A stretch of 64,000 bases of DNA from Candidatus Heimdallarchaeota archaeon (GTDB taxonomy: Archaea; Asgardarchaeota; Heimdallarchaeia; Heimdallarchaeales; Heimdallarchaeaceae): assembly GCA_019057815.1 (NCBI GenBank), contig JAHLWR010000004.1, positions 1 to 64,000 on the forward strand. Reading direction: 5' to 3'. Positions 21,916-38,553 of this stretch are shown here, piece after piece (position 1 is the first letter of the stretch; each line of letters starts with the position of its first letter). Under the pieces are notes generated by a model. That model ran no database searches, was not told the origin of the DNA, and was given only the letters and a program-made list of their open reading frames with translations. Position numbers and translations under genes: made by a program.

Positions 21916-22006
21916 TGGTGCACGCACCGGAATTCGAATCCGGGTCAGAGGCGTTCTCCTTTGTTACAAATGGGAGGCCTCGGTCCTACCACTAGACTAT
22001 GCATGC
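21916..22006 (-). tRNA. tRNA-Gly(CCC) with 17-nt intron at 37/38 and encoded CCA
   Basis: GCATGCA/TGCGTGC acceptor, GAGGC/GCCTC anticodon stem, CT-CCC-A, intron 21954-21970 forming a BHB (CTCC/GGAG), T arm CCGGA-TTCGAAT-TCCGG, ACCA end. Confidence 0.95.
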
Positions 22007-27122: not shown

Positions 27123-29039
27123 TTATTTATTTAAGATAGATTCTTCTTCTATTTCAGCGAATTTATCGGCAATGTGACCATATTCTTTAGGAAGTACTTC
27201 TCTTAAGACATCAGTAAAAGTTTTAACAGGAATTATCTCAATTTTGCCATCATATTTTTCTTCAATTTTGACATCATCAATATTTTGAAAAGGTATCAGC
27301 ACTCTTTTAATGCCTGCTTCAGCTGCGGCTTCTATTTTAGCAGTTACTCCTCCTACTGGGATGACTCTCCCTCGGACTGTCAGACTGCCAGACATAGCTG
27401 TGTCTTGCCTTACTGGTGCTTTTTCAAGCGCTGAGATAATCGAAGTGGCAATTGAAACCGAAGCAGAATCGCCTTCCACTCCTGCATAAGCACCAACGAA
27501 TTGAATATGATAGTCGAAATTTGAAATATCTGTACCTACAAATTTTTTAACTAATGCTGATATATTTTGAACTGCTTCTCTTGCAATTATCCTTAGCTGA
27601 CCAGTTGCAATAATTTTCCCTTCTTTTTGACTAAAAGCAGGAACCACTTCAGATTCGATGGGCATTACGATTCCTGAGCGTTGATTAATAACAGCTAAAC
27701 CATTCACTCTTCCAACTTTAGTTCCCTCTACTTCAATAATTTTATACATTTTCTTATCTCTAGCATAATTATCACTAATTTGATCTTCCAATGTTCTAGC
27801 GATAGTTTTAGCTAATCTTACTGTTTCAGCTGTAACAAGTTGTTCGTTTTTTTCCTTTCCTAAATCTCCAGCAGCTCTAATAAGACCTCCTAATTCTCGA
27901 AGTCGGAGAGTCAAATGACCTTTTCTATTCGCCCTGCGTTGAGATTCGTAGATAATTTCTTCAACTGCAGCTTTTGTAAAGTGAGGAATCTTCTTGTCTT
28001 TAGAAATTTCTTGAGCACAGAAACGAGCCAATTTTCTTCTATTTTCAGGTGAATCAGGCATGGTATCTTCCATGTATACTTCGTATCCAGAACCCTGAAT
28101 TCGCGATCGTAACGCTGGATGCATATTTCTTGTGGTTTCCATATTACCAGCAGCTATTAATACAAAATCACATGGCACTGCATCTGTTCTAACCATTGCT
28201 CCGCTACTTAGCTCTGATTGACCAGTGATTTGCAACTTACGTTCTTGCATAGCAGTGAGCATTTTCTGCTGTGTCCTCATTTCTAAAGTACCAATTTCGT
28301 CACAGTAAAGAACCCCCATGTGAGATTTATGAATTAAACCTGCTTCAACTCTTTCATGAGGAGGTGTTCCAAGACCCCCAGACTGGAATGGATCATGCCT
28401 TACATCACCTAATAAATTACCTGCATGTGAACCTGTAGCGTCGTTGAATGGTGCACGTGTTGTTTGATTGTTATCTACTAATAATTTAGGTACAAGCATT
28501 TCTGATCTTGATCTTTGTTGGTTTAACATAAAGAAAATGAAGAAACCTACAAACATAGCCATCAAAAGAGTTGTAGGTTGACTAGCAGGATTACCTGCGG
28601 TAGCTATGAGCGCATATCCTATGATAGCTAATAATATTACAATTGATATAATAAAACGCTTATTTCCGCTCTTTTTTGCTACTTCTCTATCCATTTCAAC
28701 TTTTCTAATTCCGTGACCAGCTGGAAGAGTAGCAATTCTTGGATTATTCGGATATTTAGGGTTAGGTAGGACTAAAGTGTCTACTAACACTTCTTTTGGT
28801 AATAGTTCTGCCATTGCGATTCCAAGCATACTTTTGCCTGTTCCTGGGTCTCCAATTAGAAGAACATGGCGTCTCTGCAAAGCAGCTTTTTTAATTATTT
28901 CTGTAGCATCATCTTGCCCAATAACTTGATCTATTAATCTTGGAGGAACTGATATCTCAGCAGTGTCGTTAAAATCAATATCGAGTAAAGGTTCTTTTTT
29001 GGCCTTCTTCTTGCTTTTCTTTTTAATGTTTCCAGCCAT
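27123..29039 (-). CDS. lonB: Membrane-bound ATP-dependent protease LonB
   Basis: DQVIGQ, GDPGTGKS, TM insert, HDPFQSGG, EGDSAS, PVGGVTAKIEAA. Confidence 0.96.
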   Translation of the reverse strand: MAGNIKKKSKKKAKKEPLLDIDFNDTAEISVPPRLIDQVIGQDDATEIIKKAALQRRHVLLIGDPGTGKSMLGIAMAELLPKEVLVDTLVLPNPKYPNNPRIATLPAGHGIRKVEMDREVAKKSGNKRFIISIVILLAIIGYALIATAGNPASQPTTLLMAMFVGFFIFFMLNQQRSRSEMLVPKLLVDNNQTTRAPFNDATGSHAGNLLGDVRHDPFQSGGLGTPPHERVEAGLIHKSHMGVLYCDEIGTLEMRTQQKMLTAMQERKLQITGQSELSSGAMVRTDAVPCDFVLIAAGNMETTRNMHPALRSRIQGSGYEVYMEDTMPDSPENRRKLARFCAQEISKDKKIPHFTKAAVEEIIYESQRRANRKGHLTLRLRELGGLIRAAGDLGKEKNEQLVTAETVRLAKTIARTLEDQISDNYARDKKMYKIIEVEGTKVGRVNGLAVINQRSGIVMPIESEVVPAFSQKEGKIIATGQLRIIAREAVQNISALVKKFVGTDISNFDYHIQFVGAYAGVEGDSASVSIATSIISALEKAPVRQDTAMSGSLTVRGRVIPVGGVTAKIEAAAEAGIKRVLIPFQNIDDVKIEEKYDGKIEIIPVKTFTDVLREVLPKEYGHIADKFAEIEEESILNK

Positions 29040-29189
29040 AGCTCTCACTACTAGAATAAGATATCCTCAATAACACTACAGCATAAAATGTTAATAAATA
29101 TAGTTATTCATCCGTTTTTGAATGTATTTATTTTACTAGTAAACTATATTTTTAAATTAATGAAGGAAAAATGTACTTGTGATATTGTA

Positions 29190-30080
29190 ATGAAAATCTT
29201 ACCCGGACCATCATCAATAAAGTTAGCAGAAAAAGTAGCTAACATAGTAAACATAGAGAGTATTGATATAATTCATAAGCTATTTTTCGATGGAGAGTCA
29301 TATATTCAGATTGACTCAGACGTTGAGAATGAAGAAATTATTATCATACAGTCCACTCATCCTCCCCAAGAAAAACATCTCCTTGAACTGTTATTACTAG
29401 GTTCTACATTAAAAGAACTGAACGCAGATAAAGTACATGCAATTGTCCCTTATTTGAGCTATTCAAGAGCAGATATACGACAATTAAGAGGGGAAATAAT
29501 TTCACATCAAATTACAGTTGACCTTATTCAAAAATCAGGTATTGATAGTCTATTCACAATCAATGTCCATAATAAATCTAAATTTCTTGAATTTACTCCT
29601 GAATTAGAGAAATACAATCTTAACATTTACCCTTATATTAGTGAATATATACAACAAAACTTGAATGGTGACTGGATTATATTAGGACCTGACCAAGGAG
29701 CGTCTGAAGATGTAAGAATCGTTGGCAATATTTTATCAGCACCTTTTTATTGGCTGGATAAGAAAAGAGATCCCATTTCACATGAGATAAGCATGGTTTG
29801 TAGTGGTTTTGACCTAAAAGAAAAAGATATAATCCTTGTGGATGATATCGTTAGTTCGGGAAGTACTGCTCTTAAAGCATGCCAGCTTATTCTAGAGCAA
29901 GAGCCTTCAAGTTTGAGATTTGTCTGTATTCATGATCTTTCCCGACCAGAATTCAAAGACAAGCTGAAGGAATTGGGAGTGAAAGAATTTATATCAACGA
30001 ACACTATTCCTGATACACAGAATTCAAAAATTGATATAGCACCCTTTCTGAGTAATTTTATAGAGGAAAAATTTGTATGA
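29190..30080 (+). CDS. prs: Ribose-phosphate pyrophosphokinase
   Basis: FFDGESY, PYLSYSRAD, GPDQGA, VDDIVSSGST; ATG at 29190. Confidence 0.9.
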   Translation: MKILPGPSSIKLAEKVANIVNIESIDIIHKLFFDGESYIQIDSDVENEEIIIIQSTHPPQEKHLLELLLLGSTLKELNADKVHAIVPYLSYSRADIRQLRGEIISHQITVDLIQKSGIDSLFTINVHNKSKFLEFTPELEKYNLNIYPYISEYIQQNLNGDWIILGPDQGASEDVRIVGNILSAPFYWLDKKRDPISHEISMVCSGFDLKEKDIILVDDIVSSGSTALKACQLILEQEPSSLRFVCIHDLSRPEFKDKLKELGVKEFISTNTIPDTQNSKIDIAPFLSNFIEEKFV

Positions 30081-31108
30081 CATCATATCTGGCTTATATT
30101 AACGCTAATTATTTACCCTTAGGTTACGAAGAATTGTACGCTGCTCTTGAAGCAGAAAAAATAGATTACAGAACAACTTATGTAGCTAACCAGATAGTTA
30201 TTTTCACTTCAAATAGAAGTCCTGTAAAAGCTGCTTCACGATGTGCATTTTTGCATTCACTTTGTATTTTGATTGCAAAAGGGTCGATCGAAAATCAAAA
30301 AATAGATTTTTTCGAAGAGAAAAGGATAGATTTACCTATTGAAAAATGTAAAACCTTTTGCGTAAGAGTAAAAAAAATTGGAAAGAGAATAGTAAAACTA
30401 AATAGAGCAGAACTAGAGCGAATTTTAGGTGGTTATGTGATAAGTGAATTCGCAGATTACGAAATGAAAGTGGATTTAAAACGGCCAAAATGTATGTTTC
30501 TTGGTCTTCTGCATAAATCAGATATTTTAATTGGATTTCAATTATGGTCTAAAAACGCAAAAGAATATAATGAACGAACTCCAGGCAATCGACCATTTTT
30601 CAGACCAGGTGTTATGAAAGCTGATTTTGCAAGAGCTATTGTAAACCTGTCTCGGATTGGTACAGGTGAGATATTCTATGATCCTTTTTGTGGAGCAGGA
30701 GGATTTCTTATTGAGGCTTCAATTTTGGGAGCCTATGTTTTAGGTTCTGATCTCGATTCTTCAGCTATTAAAGGAGCAAATATAAATTTACGTTTTCTTG
30801 GTGAAGGTCATTATTCTTTATTACATGGTGATTCAAGATATATACCACTCAAACATGTCCATGCAATAGCAACTGATCCACCATACTCAATACAATCATC
30901 AACATATGGAAAAACAATATCTGGGTTGATAGAGCAATTTCTAGAAGAATCAAAATCTATACTTGAGCAAAATAGGTACCTAGTATTCAGTAGCCCTTCT
31001 TCTAGTGAACCAGAAAGAATAGCAGAAAAAGTGGGATATAAGATGAAAACAATTATAGATGCTCGCGTGCACCGTTCTCTTACAAGAAGAATCGTGGTGT
31101 TAATGTAA
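30077..31108 (+). CDS. tRNA m2G10 methyltransferase (Trm11/TrmG10; THUMP + MTase)
   Basis: THUMP-like TFCVRV, RPFFRPG, DPFCGAGG, TDPPY, VHRSLTR. Confidence 0.88.
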   Translation: MTSYLAYINANYLPLGYEELYAALEAEKIDYRTTYVANQIVIFTSNRSPVKAASRCAFLHSLCILIAKGSIENQKIDFFEEKRIDLPIEKCKTFCVRVKKIGKRIVKLNRAELERILGGYVISEFADYEMKVDLKRPKCMFLGLLHKSDILIGFQLWSKNAKEYNERTPGNRPFFRPGVMKADFARAIVNLSRIGTGEIFYDPFCGAGGFLIEASILGAYVLGSDLDSSAIKGANINLRFLGEGHYSLLHGDSRYIPLKHVHAIATDPPYSIQSSTYGKTISGLIEQFLEESKSILEQNRYLVFSSPSSSEPERIAEKVGYKMKTIIDARVHRSLTRRIVVLM

Positions 31109-32032
31109 ATGGGTGAAAATATTTTAGTCACATTTCTAGGTACATCATCAGCACCTCCTCAAATTAACAGACGACAGAGCTCATGTATGATACAATATAG
31201 AGGACATAAAATTCTAGTTGATATTGGAGAAGCTATTCAATTACAAATGATTAAACACAAAATTAAATTTAGAGGTCCTTTAACAATATTATTAACACAT
31301 TTACATTCTGATCATACACTTGGTCTAATTGGTTTATTATCAACAAGATGCTTCTATGGGATAAATTCTCCAGTTAGAATTATTGGTCCTCCTTGGACTT
31401 CCTCATTTGTGTTTTTGCAATTATTAGCTTACAGATTTATCCCAGATTACAATATAGAAGTTATTGAGACCAAAGGAGGAATCGTAGATAGTAATACCGA
31501 CTTCTTTATTGAATCTTTTCCTGTTAACCATGTAAATCAATGTGTAGGATATAAATTTGTCACCCATACTCCATTAGGTAAATTTAGTACAGAGAGAGCT
31601 GAAAAACTTAAAGTCCCAAAAGAAATGTGGAATATATTACAAAGAGGTACTCCTGTTGAAATTAATGGAAAGAAAATCTATCCGTCAGATATACTAATAG
31701 ACACCAATGTCAAACCTACAAAAATAGTTTTAACTGGTGATACAACCTTGACTGATACTGTGATCAACAACTCATCTGGAGCAGATTTGTTAATACATGA
31801 TGCAACTTATCCTCCAGAAGAAGTAGAAAGAGCTAAGAAGTACAAACATTCTACAAGCTCAGAAGCAGCTTTTGTAGCAAAAAAAGCAAGAGTTAAAAAA
31901 CTATATTTGACCCATATTTCTAATATACACAGAGATCTAGATTATTCACTAAAAGAAGCAAAAGCTATTTTTTCTGAAAGTTATTTTGCATATGATGGTC
32001 TAAGAATTGAGCTTCCTTCTTACAATTTCTGA
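31109..32032 (+). CDS. rnz: Ribonuclease Z
   Basis: FLGTS, DIGE, THLHSDH, GDT, HDATY, HST, THIS, AYDG. Confidence 0.93.
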   Translation: MGENILVTFLGTSSAPPQINRRQSSCMIQYRGHKILVDIGEAIQLQMIKHKIKFRGPLTILLTHLHSDHTLGLIGLLSTRCFYGINSPVRIIGPPWTSSFVFLQLLAYRFIPDYNIEVIETKGGIVDSNTDFFIESFPVNHVNQCVGYKFVTHTPLGKFSTERAEKLKVPKEMWNILQRGTPVEINGKKIYPSDILIDTNVKPTKIVLTGDTTLTDTVINNSSGADLLIHDATYPPEEVERAKKYKHSTSSEAAFVAKKARVKKLYLTHISNIHRDLDYSLKEAKAIFSESYFAYDGLRIELPSYNF

Positions 32033-32469
32033 TAATCTCTGAATTTTTGTAAAATCAATTCCTCTCCATCAGAAGTTTCAGGAGCTACCCAATTTAAAAT
32101 TTCGATTGGATTTCCTCCTTTGATGATTAATTCCACATTTCCGAGAGGTGAGCTAGTGTCTGAAGTGATGACAGCTATTTTATTTATATACAAAGCTTGT
32201 TTATGAAGTAAAAAAGTTACTGATTCATTGATTTCGTCAATAAAAGCACATTTCCTTACAGTGTCCAAAATTTTTCTTTCTCTAATGACAAAGAAGAAAT
32301 TCCGAATGGAAGATAGAGGTTGGTTTTCTGCTACTAATGTTTTGTTTTCAATATCCTTGACTTCTTGTATTTTGGGAAGTTCACCTAGGAGATGGATAAA
32401 ACATTGTTCTAACTTTTGTCTGTTTTCAGTGGAAAAATAACTCATTTTTACTGTGATAGTTAATACCAC
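32020..32469 (-). CDS. DUF54/UPF0201 putative RNA-binding protein
   Basis: STENRQKL, KILDTVR, LHKQA, SPLG, WVAPET. Confidence 0.8.
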   Translation of the reverse strand: MVLTITVKMSYFSTENRQKLEQCFIHLLGELPKIQEVKDIENKTLVAENQPLSSIRNFFFVIRERKILDTVRKCAFIDEINESVTFLLHKQALYINKIAVITSDTSSPLGNVELIIKGGNPIEILNWVAPETSDGEELILQKFRDYQKL

Positions 32470-33065
32470 TATTTTTCATCTCCTTCCAAATCTTTTAATA
32501 AGGAAATAGCTTGTTCGTAGAACATTTCTTTTGTTTCGTTGTTAGAAATTACGAAATTAGAATAAACCATTGTTTCACCCAAACCTAAGCTAAGTTCAGA
32601 TTGGTCTCTTTTATCAAACTCTTCATTGGTCTTAGGAGCGTCAGTACGCCCTCTAAATCTTAATCTCTGGAATCTTACTATTGGTTCTGCATGTATTGCT
32701 ACTAAAAAGAAAACTTTTCCTAAATGCTTTCTAAAGTATTCAACTTCCTTTTGACTCCTAATCCCATCAATAATGATTTTATCTCTATTTTCTCCAAGAA
32801 GTCTATCAATTTCTATGCAAGTTAAATTGGCTACAGCTTCATCTCCATGCGTTTTTCGAATATCAGTCATTACTCTTGCAGTGTTTTCAGGATTAGGTTC
32901 CAGTCCTATTTCTTTTACTTTTTTTCTAATTACATCTCCCATGATTACTGTGTGATAATTAAGCTCTCTAGCTATATTAGCAAATTCACTTTTTCCAGAC
33001 CCAGGCATTCCAGAAACGCCAAGAATGTTAATGTTTTGCTCGGACATGCAGCTCATCAATCTCAA
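32469..33065 (-). CDS. UPF0200 P-loop kinase (dephospho-CoA/adenylate-kinase-like)
   Basis: GMPGSGKS, MGDVIR, IDGIRS, RFQRL..RGR.D. Confidence 0.85.
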   Translation of the reverse strand: MRLMSCMSEQNINILGVSGMPGSGKSEFANIARELNYHTVIMGDVIRKKVKEIGLEPNPENTARVMTDIRKTHGDEAVANLTCIEIDRLLGENRDKIIIDGIRSQKEVEYFRKHLGKVFFLVAIHAEPIVRFQRLRFRGRTDAPKTNEEFDKRDQSELSLGLGETMVYSNFVISNNETKEMFYEQAISLLKDLEGDEK

Positions 33066-33201
33066 AATTAGCTGAAATAAAAAGTTTGTTAATTGGTGAA
33101 TCTTTTACAATTAGTCAAATAAAACATGTAATCGTAAAAACTGATTTCATTTTATTATTATATAAAAAACACTTAAAAAATGCTAATCAAATAAATTATC
33201 C

Positions 33202-33780
33202 ATGGTTAGAACTTTCTTATCTGTTGATATCACAAATAAGCAAATTATAAATAATCTTAGTGCTATTCAACAGAGACTAGCTGGTCTAGGAGCAGATATT
33301 AGATTAGTTAACCCTCAGATAATTCATTTAACGTTAGAATTTCTAGGAGAGCTCTCTTCAACTCAAATTGATGTTGTAAAGGGAATCATGAATGAGATAA
33401 AATTTGATAGTATTAAACTAAAAGTTGTAGGAATAGATGTTCTACCTAATAAAAATCACATTAAAGTTATTTGTTGCAAAGTCGAGGGCGATGTCCAGAA
33501 ATTACAAAACATTCAAAAAGCCTTAAGAGTTAAGCTTGGAAAAGAAGGTTTTAGGACTGACAATCGGAAGTTTAAACCACATGCAACCATCGCAAGAGTA
33601 AAGTCTTCAAGGAAAAAAAATGAATTAATAAGTTTAATAAACGAATTGTCAGATGCAGATGTAGGCAATCAAGAAATTGATTCGATCAAACTCAAGAAAT
33701 CAGAGCTTAGACCTGATGGTCCTCAGTATTCAATACTTCATGAAGTATATGCGGAAAAACAAATAAATAATCGTGTTTAA
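33202..33780 (+). CDS. thpR: RNA 2',3'-cyclic phosphodiesterase (2H family)
   Basis: HLTLEFLGE and PHATIARVK 2H motifs, SELRPDGPQY. Confidence 0.92.
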   Translation: MVRTFLSVDITNKQIINNLSAIQQRLAGLGADIRLVNPQIIHLTLEFLGELSSTQIDVVKGIMNEIKFDSIKLKVVGIDVLPNKNHIKVICCKVEGDVQKLQNIQKALRVKLGKEGFRTDNRKFKPHATIARVKSSRKKNELISLINELSDADVGNQEIDSIKLKKSELRPDGPQYSILHEVYAEKQINNRV

Positions 33781-33792
33781 CTGGTGTGTAAC

Positions 33793-35301
33793 ATGGATGA
33801 AAGCAAACCTAGAAGAAGTTCCTCTAAAGGAAAACAAAAGAATAATCACGATTATATTGAGAAACAAGTTCTCGAAGTAATTCAAATACAAAAAGACCCA
33901 CATGCTGAAATTGGAGAAGTCTTATCAATTCTAAAAGAAAAAATTCAAATGGATTTAGTTTCACTTGGAGTAGCTGGTAGAGTAGCAATTCAAGGTTCTT
34001 TTGTTAGAAAAACTTATCTTAGTGATGACGATTCCTTTGATCTACTAATTATACTCCCAAAATCAGAGAAACCAAATGTTCACTCCATTTTAGATTCGCT
34101 TCTTAAAAGATTGAAAAAAGATAGAGTCAAGAAAGAAAAAATAGAAGTTACAAAAATTACTGGTAAAATACCTTATTTGCGCCTATTCGCAGGAAATGAA
34201 AAAATACATCTTTTTGTTGGATTTGATATATCACAGGGAGAGGAGAAAATATCCATTTTTGATTATATTCCATATCATAGCCAATATATCTTAACTCATA
34301 TGGATAAGAAAGTCAGGAAAGATGTAGTTTTACTCAAGAAATTCACAAAAGCTATTGGAGTTTACAGGGACGACTATGGTGCTATAGGATTCAATGGATA
34401 TTTATGTGAACTTCTGATATTGTTTTATGGTTCTTTTAGAGAAACACTAAAAGGAATCTGTAAATGGAGGGCAAGAACTGTTATCGATATTAAGAAAGCA
34501 CGATTGAAATTTGAAGATGTTGACGAGCTTTCAGTCGAAATGATTTATGGTTATTATCCAATATATGTCCCCGACCCTTTATACAGAAAAGAAAATATAG
34601 CAGCAGATGTTTCAGTTGATCAATTTAATTCTATAATTGCCGCTGCTAATTATTATCTCAGCAAACCAAGTTTACTATTTTTTGAAGAGTCATTATATGA
34701 AATACCTCTCTTCAATGAGATAGTGCATAAAGTTGTTAATTCGAAAAAAGAAATAATAGTATTAGCTATTCCAAGAAATTTCCAAGAATCTGGGGTTTCA
34801 TGGCAAAAAGCACTAAGTATTAGGAAGGCACTAGAACAAGAACTAATCAAGCACTACTACATGTTAGAAAGGAGCAAACCTTTTGTCTCCGATGATTATT
34901 ATGGTACAATTTTATCTCTTATGACCCCTAACCCTCAGTTATCACAAAGAAAAGAAGGACCCGAAATTATATCAGAAGAGTCGGTGAAATTTCTAGATAG
35001 ATATGCCAAACACATGGATGTTATTTCTGGACCTTTCATCGATTATGGCAAATGGGTGGTATATTTCAGTAAAAGAGGTCAACCAGTTTATGAATTCATT
35101 TCAGCATTAGTGAAAAAGAATGCTTTTATTCTAAATGTTGATTCTTTCCTAAAATTGGAAATTAAAGAAAAACTGAAGGTTATAGGAGTTGACCAAAATC
35201 TTCAACAGATGTATGAAACAGATGATTCATTTGCTGAAAATCTTTTCTTGTTTGTAGTCAGAAAACCTTTATGGGTTCATACACTAGAATTCGAGGAATG
35301 A
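33793..35301 (+). CDS. Class I CCA-adding enzyme homologue, catalytic motifs degenerate
   Basis: GSFVRKTYL, LLKKF, GFNGYLCELL..YGSF, DP....NIAA, GP; syntenic with thpR; lacks E/DxD and third Asp. Confidence 0.82.
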   Translation: MDESKPRRSSSKGKQKNNHDYIEKQVLEVIQIQKDPHAEIGEVLSILKEKIQMDLVSLGVAGRVAIQGSFVRKTYLSDDDSFDLLIILPKSEKPNVHSILDSLLKRLKKDRVKKEKIEVTKITGKIPYLRLFAGNEKIHLFVGFDISQGEEKISIFDYIPYHSQYILTHMDKKVRKDVVLLKKFTKAIGVYRDDYGAIGFNGYLCELLILFYGSFRETLKGICKWRARTVIDIKKARLKFEDVDELSVEMIYGYYPIYVPDPLYRKENIAADVSVDQFNSIIAAANYYLSKPSLLFFEESLYEIPLFNEIVHKVVNSKKEIIVLAIPRNFQESGVSWQKALSIRKALEQELIKHYYMLERSKPFVSDDYYGTILSLMTPNPQLSQRKEGPEIISEESVKFLDRYAKHMDVISGPFIDYGKWVVYFSKRGQPVYEFISALVKKNAFILNVDSFLKLEIKEKLKVIGVDQNLQQMYETDDSFAENLFLFVVRKPLWVHTLEFEE

Positions 35302-35336
35302 CATGAATTTTGTGTGTACAAATTCTTTAGAAGTGC

Positions 35337-35384
35337 TTGATAGCATTCATCCCCCACCTAAAGAAAGGGGACTTCTGCTATCAA
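35337..35384. repeat. IS200/IS605-end-like (REP-like) hairpin
   Basis: TTGATAGCA...TGCTATCAA 9-bp IR enclosing ATTCATCCCCCACCTAAAGAAAGGGGACTTC. Confidence 0.55.
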
Positions 35385-35494
35385 CCGTCGTCCACTGAGT
35401 GTAGAAAAGTTGACTAATCTTGCCATAAGCATCCGAACTACAAAAATGGCGATGTAGAAGGAGAGTAAAAACTAACTCTTTTTTCTTTTACGGG

Positions 35495-35502
35495 TTTATA
35501 TA
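35495..35502 (+). promoter_or_regulatory. TATA box upstream of candidate ncRNA
   Basis: TTTATATA about 25 nt before the first stem, between convergent genes. Confidence 0.5.
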
Positions 35503-35524
35503 TGAAATTAAAAATATATAAGTA

Positions 35525-35760
35525 GAGATAGTGTGATCATCACTACTTACCTGTTCTGCAACTACACAAGTGGTTGTCCCTCAGTCAACTCTAAATGAAA
35601 CAGGGAGCCTAGCTAGCTCTGTGTTGATGACACACTACCTATAATGGAAAAGTCTTCATGACTACCCCTCAACGCACGTGAGGGGTCAAGGGTGAAATCC
35701 CTTCAAACGACGGTTAGAAAGCCTCTGGCAAGTTTAACCAAGTTTCATAACGTGCGTTAA
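35525..35760 (+). ncRNA. Unknown highly structured ncRNA with pseudoknot
   Basis: At least eight stems with G-U pairs favouring the + strand, T-loop-like arm AAGGG-TGAAAT-CCCTT, 9-nt loop/tail complement AACGCACGT/ACGTGCGTT; no ORF. Confidence 0.65.
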
Positions 35761-35809
35761 AATGTCTGTTAACAGTAAGAAAAAATAAAGAAAAGGAAAT
35801 ATGAAGAAT

Positions 35810-37045
35810 TTAGAAGATTTTTAATTCTCTTCCAATATCTTCGAACTTCCCAAGAGATAAGTCTAGATGCTCTTTTGTTAGTCCTGTATTCATCATTACT
35901 CTAATCCTAGATGTTCCGCGAGGAACCATTGGAAACATGATTGGTAAAGCAAAAATCCCTTCTTCCATCAAACGATCACTCATCTTTTTAGCAGTCTCAT
36001 TTTCACCGCAAATTACAGGAACAATAGCAGTTGGACATTTTGCTGCAGCAGCTGTAATTGGGTGACTGAAACCGATATTCACAATCTCCTTCTTGAAATA
36101 ATCACAATTATCCAAGAGCTTTGCAACAACAGGTTCAAAGAACTCAGATTTTGGATTAAGTACTTCTAAGGAACCAATAGCAGCTCCTGCAATAGCAGGG
36201 GGAGGAGAACCACTTAAAAGATAGGAACGGGCAGTATTTCTAAGGAAGTTTATCAAATCTTTAGAACCAGTTATTGAGCCTCCAACAACACCCATTGCTT
36301 TGCTGTAAGTGTTCATTTCAACTTGAACTTTACCTTGAAGATCAAAATGGTCTACAATACCCTTACCCTTCTTATCTCGACCTAAAACACCATCTCCATG
36401 AGCATCGTCAACAAAAATCATCGCACCATAATCTTCGCATAATTTCTGTATCTCATCTAGAAGAGACATATCTCCATCCATTGAAAATACCCCGTCTGTT
36501 AGAACAAGTATCCTTTTTTCACCATTTGGATCTTCTTTATCAGCTTCATGTAATCTGGCTTCAAGCTCACCCATATCATTGTGCTTGTATATTGATCGTT
36601 TAGTTTTAGTTAATCTCACTCCATCAATAATACTTCCATGATTTAGTTCGTCACTAATGATAAAATCATCCCTTCGTACCAAGGGTGGAATAGCTCCTTC
36701 ATTAGCTATGAAACCGCTCATGAAAACTATTGCAGCTTCTTGTTCTTTGAACTCTGCATGTTTTTGTTCCCATTCTTCATGGATAACCATGTTACCAGCA
36801 ATAGCTCTAACTGAGCCTGATCCTGCACCATATTTTTCGACTGCCTCTATTGCGCGTTTTCTTAAGTGAGGATGATTACTAAGATTCAAATAATTATTAG
36901 AACAAAGCATCAAAAGTTCTTTGCCTTCAACTATAACATTAGGAACAGAAGGAGTCTCTAATTTTCTGTGGACCCATTCTCTACCTTCTTTTTGTATTTG
37001 CTTATATTCTTCTTTTAAAAATTTCGTAGGTTTTCTTTTAGCCAT
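35810..37045 (-). CDS. Glycine C-acetyltransferase / alpha-oxoamine synthase family
   Basis: CSNNYLNL, DELNHGSIIDG, DGVFSMDGD, DDAHG, TYSKAMG, PMVPRG..RIR. Confidence 0.9.
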   Translation of the reverse strand: MAKRKPTKFLKEEYKQIQKEGREWVHRKLETPSVPNVIVEGKELLMLCSNNYLNLSNHPHLRKRAIEAVEKYGAGSGSVRAIAGNMVIHEEWEQKHAEFKEQEAAIVFMSGFIANEGAIPPLVRRDDFIISDELNHGSIIDGVRLTKTKRSIYKHNDMGELEARLHEADKEDPNGEKRILVLTDGVFSMDGDMSLLDEIQKLCEDYGAMIFVDDAHGDGVLGRDKKGKGIVDHFDLQGKVQVEMNTYSKAMGVVGGSITGSKDLINFLRNTARSYLLSGSPPPAIAGAAIGSLEVLNPKSEFFEPVVAKLLDNCDYFKKEIVNIGFSHPITAAAAKCPTAIVPVICGENETAKKMSDRLMEEGIFALPIMFPMVPRGTSRIRVMMNTGLTKEHLDLSLGKFEDIGRELKIF

Positions 37046-37233
37046 TTAGGCACCTCTCTTGCTATGACATAAAGATAACATAGGCTATTTATTCTTTACT
37101 GTGAACTTACGATTAATAGAAATAATCTTTGCTAGATGGAATAAAAAAAGAATGCTTTACAAATGTAAATTTAAAGGAAAATATTTTATAAGGTATATTT
37201 CTATCGGGATTAAAATATATCAGTTGTGCTAAA

Positions 37234-38553
37234 ATGGTTTCAGTCAAATATTCAAATGTAAGCATTGCGTATGGTGATTTTATAGTTCTTGAAAATTTGG
37301 ATTTAGATATTCGTGATGGTGAGATAACTACACTTCTAGGTCCATCAGGTTGTGGTAAAACAACACTTCTGCGAGCTCTTGCAGGCTTTGTTGAACCTTA
37401 TGAAGGACATATCTATCTAGGGGAAGAAGAAGTAACACTCCTTCCACCTCAAAAAAGGGATACTGCTATGATTTTTCAGAATTATGCTTTATGGCCTCAT
37501 CTGTCGATTTTCAAGAATGTTGAATATGGGTTGAAATTAAGAGATAAGGATAAAGTAGATGATGAAAAACCTTGGTATTCAAAGTTGATATGGCTAGCAA
37601 AACCTTTCTTTATCTTCGTTCCTCAAACACATAAATCTGTATCCAAACGTCTGAAAGAAGAAAAAAAAGTTTATTTTAAGAACAAACCTAAAACTGCAAT
37701 AGTTATTTGGTGGTTTAAGGTACCATTGAGAAGATTTAAACTTACTTTTGAAGAATCAACTTTTACTTACCTCGATTTTAAAGCGACTAAAGATCCTTCA
37801 TGGGCTTATAGGAGAAAAAGAGTTTTAGATGTATTGAAATTGGTACACCTTGAAGACCAAGCAAAAAAACAACCTACTCAATTATCAGGTGGTCAACAAC
37901 AAAGAATCGCCCTTTGCAGAGCAATAGTAGTAGAACCAGATGTGTTGCTCTGTGATGAGCCTTTGTCTAATCTAGATGCTAAATTGCGTCATGAGCTTCG
38001 AACTGAAATTCGTTCTATTATCAAAAAAATAGGCATAACGGCTATTTATGTTACTCACGATCAACAGGAAGCACTAGCAATTAGTGATCGGATCGCTGTG
38101 ATGAATATCGGAAATATTGAACAGTTTGGTACACCTACAGAAATATATTCTAACCCCCATACACTCTTTGTTGCACAGTTTATGGGAACTTCATGCACTT
38201 TTAAGGGCATCGTAAAATCTAGTGATACAGTAGAATTGAAGGGTGGGGAAATTATGAAATTCAAAACCCAAAAGAGCATAGACTCTGGTGTAGAAGTTAG
38301 TTTGATAGTTAGACCCGATAATGTTTGCGTGATTGAAAAAACCGACAATCCTATTGAAGTAGAAATTAATACTATAGAATACTTGGGAACAGAAGTAAAA
38401 ATAACAGGGAAACTTAAAGATGATACAATTCTCTTAATTGATGTAGCTGAAAAAACAGAAGAATATGCAAAAATGGTAGTAGGAGATATAATAACTGCTT
38501 ACATTAAACCAGAAGAAACTTTTGTATTTATAGGAGAAGAAAGAATCTATTAA
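37234..38553 (+). CDS. ABC transporter ATP-binding subunit (PotA/FbpC/MalK type, TOBE) with ~80-aa insert
   Basis: GPSGCGKT, FQNYAL, LSGGQQQR, DEPLSNLD, VTHDQ. Confidence 0.92.
   Translation: MVSVKYSNVSIAYGDFIVLENLDLDIRDGEITTLLGPSGCGKTTLLRALAGFVEPYEGHIYLGEEEVTLLPPQKRDTAMIFQNYALWPHLSIFKNVEYGLKLRDKDKVDDEKPWYSKLIWLAKPFFIFVPQTHKSVSKRLKEEKKVYFKNKPKTAIVIWWFKVPLRRFKLTFEESTFTYLDFKATKDPSWAYRRKRVLDVLKLVHLEDQAKKQPTQLSGGQQQRIALCRAIVVEPDVLLCDEPLSNLDAKLRHELRTEIRSIIKKIGITAIYVTHDQQEALAISDRIAVMNIGNIEQFGTPTEIYSNPHTLFVAQFMGTSCTFKGIVKSSDTVELKGGEIMKFKTQKSIDSGVEVSLIVRPDNVCVIEKTDNPIEVEINTIEYLGTEVKITGKLKDDTILLIDVAEKTEEYAKMVVGDIITAYIKPEETFVFIGEERIY

Follow-up and report, generated by a model that had tools for sequence, protein, structure and literature searches.

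The window analysed here, a stretch of 64,000 nucleotides (positions 1 to 64,000, forward strand, of contig JAHLWR010000004.1) from a Candidatus Heimdallarchaeota archaeon of the family Heimdallarchaeaceae (assembly GCA_019057815.1, genome G000), carries at 33793-35301 (+) a degenerate homolog of class I CCA-adding enzymes (P0001), which we call CCA1*. CCA1* is probably a catalytically dead class I descendant, supplanted by a class II enzyme (CCA2) and kept by selection as a non-catalytic protein. Its most likely role, as far as we can infer, would be that of an RNA-end-binding or adaptor protein in tRNA 3'-end processing or repair, alongside ThpR, the product of the gene directly upstream. 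The core finding (an inactive CCA1, an active CCA2 and family-wide substitutions) is already published for Heimdallarchaeum aukensis (Cassidy, Doktor, Betat, Morl and Prohaska, bioRxiv 10.64898/2026.05.29.728689, dated August 2026). The additions made here are the ratios of nonsynonymous to synonymous substitution rates (dN/dS), a degree of conservation higher than that of CCA2, the thpR/tRNA gene cluster, the long stem and shallow crown of the family tree, and the CCA ends encoded in the tRNA genes.

In eukaryotes, CCA addition is done by a class II enzyme, yet Utp22/NOL6 is present as a dead derivative of class I, and some ancestor must therefore have held both. Heimdallarchaeaceae are a living lineage with both CCA classes, in which the apparently dead copy of class I shows no decay and is more constrained than its active replacement. 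The step from enzyme to scaffold can thus be approached experimentally, using the proteins that were expressed in the work for the preprint.

Active-site residues of CCA1* and its family

As the original prediction had stated, the gene is full length. It forms an open frame of 502 aa (with an alternative GTG start at 33784), which the archaeal CCA-adding enzyme model TIGR03671 (cca_archaeal) covers nearly end to end (model positions 2-403 of 410). The score of 211.8 bits, however, lies below the curated cut-off of 281.3 bits, so that the threshold for whole-protein membership is missed. In a Pfam scan the neck domain PF09249 was strong (1.2e-27), and the catalytic head PF01909 stayed under its threshold.

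Residue correspondence was taken from a phmmer alignment to the Archaeoglobus fulgidus CCA enzyme (1r89), which reproduces the G46, S47, E59, D61 and D110 numbering of that protein. In the A. fulgidus enzyme, E59, D61 and D110 are the metal ligands and R224 serves CTP/ATP selection (PMC3925840, PMC3794860). The first of these carboxylates, E59, is replaced in CCA1* by Ser81 and the second, D61, is retained as Asp83, in what used to be the (D/E)xD metal-binding motif (Ser81-Phe82-Asp83, codons at 34033-34041, +). The third, D110, aligns with His139 (34207-34209, +), leaving only one of the three catalytic carboxylates that a class I enzyme is expected to have. Further replacements affect H97 (Ile126), R129 and T130 (Tyr158 and Ile159) and R224, the residue that selects the nucleoside triphosphate (NTP), which aligns with Glu267 (34591-34593, +); K166 and S171 (A. 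fulgidus numbering) are likewise substituted. Each active-site substitution listed in the original prediction was seen in this alignment.

What CCA1* retains is G68, S69, D83, D157, P160, H162, K182 and Y191. These include the counterparts of A. fulgidus S47, H133, K152 and Y161, which we take to be triphosphate-binding residues. Set against the A. fulgidus structures (1R89, 3OVS), CCA1* shares the fold, the GS motif, D61, D128, H133, K152, Y161 and the GY..E block; beyond the replacements given above, it has 13 extra residues with an EDVD motif inserted in the neck, a basic head helix of greater length, and N- and C-terminal extensions. By alignment of the family, the family-specific insertion in the neck domain spans residues 238-253 (34504-34551, +), a region with invariant E241-D242-V243-D244 and Y254-Y255-P256.

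To place these lesions in context, we surveyed 31 genomes of the archaeon's own GTDB family (Heimdallarchaeaceae, f1). A degenerate class I gene was present in 28 of them, none of the 31 genomes had a copy above the TIGR03671 cut-off (scores of 180-243 bits), and stop codons or frameshifts in the gene were found in 0 of the 28. All class I copies detected in the family had the active-site lesions of CCA1*: the first-carboxylate site is occupied by Ser, Thr, Val or Ala, the third by His or Asn, and the R224 site by D, E, N, M or S. A database search returned about 35 clusters at 53-61% identity to CCA1*, with named sources given as Heimdallarchaeota or Heimdallarchaeaceae, and below them a gap in identity down to 26-31%, where ordinary CCA enzymes begin. 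Public records give the CCA1* genes the name 'CCA-adding enzyme' or 'hypothetical protein', although another gene does the CCA addition in these genomes.

For comparison we used about 143 other near-full-length class I cluster representatives from an exhaustive profile search, in which the CCA1* family collapses to one 50% cluster plus fragments. The first carboxylate was D or E in 142/142 of these representatives, H97 was His in 142/143, R129 was Arg in 144/145 and R224 was Arg in 145/145; the lesion set of CCA1* occurred in none of the roughly 143. Lesions that are shared by all Heimdallarchaeaceae orthologs and nearly absent elsewhere are therefore not due to chance. The third carboxylate has to be read with more care. 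Its loss at His139, to which the original prediction had pointed, is real, but Asn replaces D110 in 16 of 144 class I representatives that are otherwise intact, with every other active-site residue present, so that His or Asn at this site is not diagnostic alone. These Asn-bearing enzymes include P0060, P0064, P0077, P0083, P0084, P0087, P0090 and P0100; the third ligand is either not required in some lineages or comes from elsewhere.

The class II enzyme and selection on CCA1*

The search for a second, active CCA enzyme that had been proposed along with the original prediction gave a positive answer. Genome G000 (48 contigs, 95% complete) contains no second class I CCA gene and has an intact class II CCA gene of 477 aa on contig C48 (G000:C48:165533-166966). 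Its head domain PF01743 (PolyA_pol) scores 76.8 bits, over the cut-off of 23, and motif A (GGFVRD..DID), the flexible loop, motif B (RRDFTINA), motif D (EDYLRMFRAIRF) and motif E can all be read in the protein. Motifs A-E and the flexible loop are conserved across Heimdallarchaeaceae. Beside the class II gene on C48 lies a gene for a 253-aa membrane-looking protein (L004:394-1155, -) with about ten tandem hexapeptide repeats of the 'HDVAVD' type; a 104-aa open reading frame represents the same repeat on the opposite strand and is probably spurious.

The distribution of the two classes was then compared family by family across Heimdallarchaeia. In Heimdallarchaeaceae, the degenerate class I gene (28/31) is accompanied by a class II gene in 27/31 genomes, including two single-contig genomes. 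Families f2, f3 and f7 have canonical class I genes and no class II gene. Families f4 and f5 have class II genes, in two copies in f5, and no class I gene save on two doubtful contigs; thpR is still there, and the gene that follows it is not cca. This distribution makes canonical class I and class II mutually exclusive in Heimdallarchaeia. Within the class, the two occur together only in Heimdallarchaeaceae, where the class I copy is always degenerate.

The only class I matches in f5 lie on G044:C101 (L025:1097-2476) and G061:C204 (L027), contigs of 3,982 and 2,557 bp, respectively, and the copy in G044 clusters with sequences from f7, which points to mis-binning more than to true retention. 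The class II paralogs of f5 measure about 650-700 aa and about 385-415 aa (for example G052:C1:3492343-3492720 and G052:C1:987252-987623); CCA2 paralogs in Hodarchaeales were also noted in the preprint (bioRxiv 10.64898/2026.05.29.728689).

The published work on H. aukensis agrees with this distribution and reports Gerdarchaeales with CCA1 only, Hodarchaeales with CCA2 only and Heimdallarchaeaceae with both. Recombinant H. aukensis CCA1 was completely inactive on yeast tRNA-Phe lacking CCA, with all four NTPs supplied, and CCA2 (class II) was active in vitro; the key substitutions, among them an Arg-to-Asn change in H. aukensis CCA1, were stated to be conserved in Heimdallarchaeaceae (bioRxiv 10.64898/2026.05.29.728689). 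H. aukensis CCA1 and CCA1* belong to the same orthologous group and family, share the locus type and the key substitutions, and both stand alongside a class II enzyme. They differ in genus and at the NTP-selecting Arg site, which is Asn in H. aukensis CCA1 and Glu in CCA1*. Two single-contig genomes of our survey, G004 and G005, have exactly the Arg-to-Asn form, and CCA1* is about 54% identical to these. A text search of the preprint gave no mention of selection, the thpR/tRNA cluster, synteny or repair, nor of genome-encoded CCA, tRNA genes, Utp22 or NOL6.

Selection on CCA1* was examined in two pairs of genomes. Between G000 and G001, which are of the same genus, dN/dS was 0.145 for CCA1*, 0.132-0.356 for its cluster neighbours and 0.075 for the convergent downstream gene KBL. 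Between G004 and G005 it was 0.033 for CCA1*, the lowest of six genes, against 0.069-0.117 for the cluster neighbours. The values for CCA1* are thus as low as or below those of RNase Z, ThpR and the methyltransferase encoded next door. Between genera, CCA1* is 53-61% identical, whereas the active CCA2 encoded in the same genomes reaches 41-47%, and conservation of CCA1* is about even over its four domains and C-terminal extension. Some 100 positions do not vary in the family, and many of these are newly fixed; among the newly fixed features are the neck insertion with its E-D-V-D motif and several Lys and Arg residues. CCA1* is under strong purifying selection and must therefore have some other use.

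In phylogenetic trees, the CCA1* family falls among Heimdallarchaeia class I sequences, on a stem branch of 1.8-1.95 substitutions per site that leads to a shallow crown. Its nearest outgroup, P0045 (SH-aLRT support, from the Shimodaira-Hasegawa-like approximate likelihood ratio test, of 91), retains every catalytic residue and has thpR and cca in the same arrangement. A burst of change that gave way to constraint is in keeping with altered function and not with decay. P0045 itself (500 aa; L032:3147-4649 and L033:1848-3350, GCA_030666915.1) has traits that are otherwise special to the CCA1* family, namely IQGSF, TYL and long termini, and may be a transitional form.

Taken as a sequence of events, our explanation would run as follows. 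In the ancestor of Heimdallarchaeaceae, CCA addition would have passed to a bacterial-type CCA2, whose job in G000 would mostly be repair. CCA1, freed from catalysis, would have been remodelled in a burst, and strong purifying selection would since have preserved it as a non-catalytic protein, which is presumably co-produced with ThpR from an ancestral cluster that also has RNase Z.

Alternative readings and the relation to Utp22/NOL6

Several points weigh against this explanation. The published CCA1 assay was made with the protein of another genus, on one substrate, with Mg2+ and at 37 C; its substrate was a tRNA missing the whole CCA, and it would not have registered the addition of A76 alone, an activity that A. 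fulgidus R224 mutants retain. Asp79, two residues before the lost carboxylate, is nearly invariant in the CCA1* family and could lie on the same face of the strand as that carboxylate, and Asn takes the place of the third carboxylate in enzymes that otherwise look intact. Retained RNA binding is uncertain because the family is more acidic than canonical enzymes (median net charge -8 vs +8.5), yet with overlapping ranges (-16 to +4 vs -7 to +41); CCA1* of G000 itself has a net charge of +4. On account of this overlap, net charge was not relied on to judge RNA binding. Finally, the adjacency to thpR was inherited from active ancestors and is therefore no proof, alone, of a current partnership.

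Some of these observations would also be accommodated if CCA1* were still an enzyme with altered chemistry, be it an A76-only adder, a transferase acting on a different RNA or nucleotide, or an enzyme with a single metal, whose ligands would be Asp83 plus Asp79, His/Asn139 or the new EDVD motif. No part of the protein is better conserved than the former pocket, with the retained residues from G68 to Y191, and E241-D242-V243-D244 is invariant. We nonetheless regard an enzyme of this kind as unlikely. Ser, Thr, Val or Ala at the first-carboxylate site is unlike a ligand, at a position that is D or E in all other class I representatives compared; H97, R129, T130, K166, S171 and R224 were lost jointly; the EDVD loop is low in model confidence; and the H. 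aukensis ortholog, its upstream Asp residues included, was completely inactive with all four NTPs. At the other extreme, CCA1* could be pictured as a decaying, functionless relic that merely awaits loss. The preprint calls CCA1 'intact but silenced', having accumulated inactivating mutations (bioRxiv 10.64898/2026.05.29.728689), and other class II lineages have lost CCA1 outright. This picture is already contradicted by the selection data, namely the intact frames in all 28 genomes, dN/dS of 0.033-0.145, conservation higher than that of the active CCA2 and the many newly fixed invariant positions, and it is almost certainly wrong.

The original prediction had gone further and proposed a Utp22/NOL6-like pseudo-enzyme that may parallel or precede the eukaryotic transition. 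Utp22 comprises a pair of class I CCA modules whose active sites are degenerate, and an archaeal origin is attributed to it (PMC3794860). An AlphaFold2 (AF2) model of CCA1* (predicted local distance difference test, pLDDT, 86.9; predicted template modelling score, pTM, 0.81) has the complete class I fold of head, neck, body and tail, with low confidence at residues 241-251, the EDVD loop. In a Foldseek search with this model, the top 14 matches were A. fulgidus CCA (E ~1e-31, template modelling score, TM, up to 0.78), the first non-CCA match was Utp22 (4m5d_A, 1.9e-12), followed by poly(A) polymerases, and NOL6 (7mq8_NH) was matched at 2.7e-10. A canonical CCA1 from G070, of the same class (pLDDT 89.0), served as control and matched human NOL6 7mq8_NH at 1.1e-12 and Utp22 4m5d_A at 9.5e-11. 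When language-model features were compared, Nrap clusters were the nearest non-CCA families, at 0.83 for CCA1* and 0.82 for the canonical control. By Foldseek as well as by feature scores, CCA1* is not closer to Utp22 than a canonical class I enzyme is, and because the control matches equally well, the likeness to Utp22 is a general property of class I.

Sequence searches agreed with this. The Pfam scan of CCA1* gave no Nrap family at E <= 1, and neither PF03813 (Nrap) nor PF12923 (RRP7) had a match in the G000 genome at E <= 10. With the CCA1* family profile, a search of PDB sequences at E <= 10 returned A. fulgidus CCA and noise only, and no Utp22 chain. No fused or longer relatives of CCA1* (901-2,570 aa) were found, which is weak evidence. 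Like Utp22/NOL6 (4M5D, 7MQ8), CCA1* has a class I fold with degenerate carboxylates, appears to be non-enzymatic and resides in a host with class II CCA addition. Utp22 is a tandem fusion of about 1,100-1,200 aa that binds Rrp7 and belongs to the 90S pre-ribosome; CCA1*, in turn, is a single 502-aa module, not the two of Utp22, encoded in a tRNA gene cluster and with no Nrap or RRP7 sequence signal.

A direct forerunner or sister of Utp22/NOL6, in which the class II takeover freed class I for scaffolding in ribosome biogenesis, would therefore have to be argued from other grounds. Beyond the two degenerate modules and supposed archaeal origin of Utp22 and its rank as first non-CCA fold match, these are the grouping of Heimdallarchaeaceae CCA2 with eukaryotic CCA enzymes, for which an approximately unbiased (AU) test could not reject alternatives (bioRxiv 10.64898/2026.05.29.728689), and the fact that only Heimdallarchaeaceae within the class keep an active class II together with a conserved dead class I copy. 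We consider such direct kinship very improbable. The canonical CCA1 matches Utp22/NOL6 as well or better and has the same Nrap feature scores, profile searches gave no Nrap, RRP7 or Utp22 signal, the protein is one module for which no fused form was found (weak evidence), the lesions appeared along the stem of a single family that had by then parted from the active-looking P0045, and the gene remains in a tRNA cluster and not in an rRNA cluster. A broader version, according to which Heimdallarchaeaceae would preserve the state from which Utp22/NOL6 arose, with a CCA2 takeover and class I fixed as an RNA-processing scaffold before any fusion, is highly doubtful too. If it were true, duplication, fusion and recruitment to the pre-ribosome would have followed in the eukaryotic stem, and CCA1* would bind rRNA precursors or ribosome-assembly factors besides or instead of tRNA.

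Of the original proposal, the pseudo-enzyme part thus stands, on the strength of the family-wide lesions and the inactivity of the ortholog in the preprint. The kinship with Utp22 does not, given that the controls scored equally; the structure comparison revealed no special affinity over the canonical G070 CCA1, and nothing (no Nrap or RRP7 signal, a single module, an equal control) indicates that CCA1* precedes the Utp22 transition. The relation would be one of parallel only and holds only as an analogy, no evidence of descent having been found.

Gene neighbourhood and tRNA genes

CCA1* lies in a cluster of genes for tRNA processing. The neighbour thpR, whose place beside the gene had been noted originally, lies directly upstream (33202-33780, +) and encodes an RNA 2',3'-cyclic phosphodiesterase (TIGR02258, 132.3 bits, over the cut-off) in which the two HxT motifs are preserved; the thpR frame ends 3-12 nt ahead of the CCA1* start. 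Across the family this junction ranges from a 38-nt overlap to an 18-nt gap, and its closeness or overlap suggests co-expression. Prediction of a complex from CCA1* and ThpR alignments gave no answer (score 0.00) and weighs neither way.

Further upstream are the gene for the tRNA 3'-end endonuclease RNase Z (31109-32032, +; NF000801, 276.9 bits, over the cut-off) and a TIGR01177-family methyltransferase gene (30077-31108, +; 248 bits), both conserved in position. The latter also has weaker matches to tRNA guanine-N2 (Trm14) models, from which it is probably a tRNA methyltransferase. Between RNase Z and thpR, two genes are encoded on the opposite strand. One is a small conserved protein (32020-32469, -) that matches NF001687 (PRK00447, 86 bits), a model named 'hypothetical protein', and is syntenic in f1 and f7; we presume it to be UPF0201. 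The other is a protein with a P-loop nucleotide-kinase fold (32469-33065, -) that has weak kinase-family matches and is syntenic across the class, and which we take to be UPF0200-like.

The order methyltransferase, RNase Z, UPF0201-UPF0200 pair, thpR and cca is kept in Heimdallarchaeaceae and in the CCA1-only family f7. CCA1* therefore stays in an ancestral tRNA-processing cluster. This synteny with CCA1-only Heimdallarchaeia, together with the placement in the trees, identifies CCA1* as the vertical ortholog of canonical CCA1. Downstream, a gap of about 500 bp (35302-35809) separates CCA1* from the convergent 2-amino-3-ketobutyrate CoA ligase-like gene, and an Rfam scan of window positions 29000-38000 returned no match at E <= 0.1.

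The tRNA genes of G000, as detected by ARAGORN, encode the 3' CCA in 25 of 25 cases without an intron and in 10 of 11 with one. Since nearly all detected tRNA genes encode CCA, CCA addition in this genome is probably mainly repair, and the encoded CCA may have eased the replacement of CCA1 by CCA2. The sole tRNA gene without an encoded CCA is a second one for tRNA-Cys; it has an intron of 50 nt and is doubtful. An example of a tRNA gene that does encode it lies in the window itself, at 21916-22006 (-).

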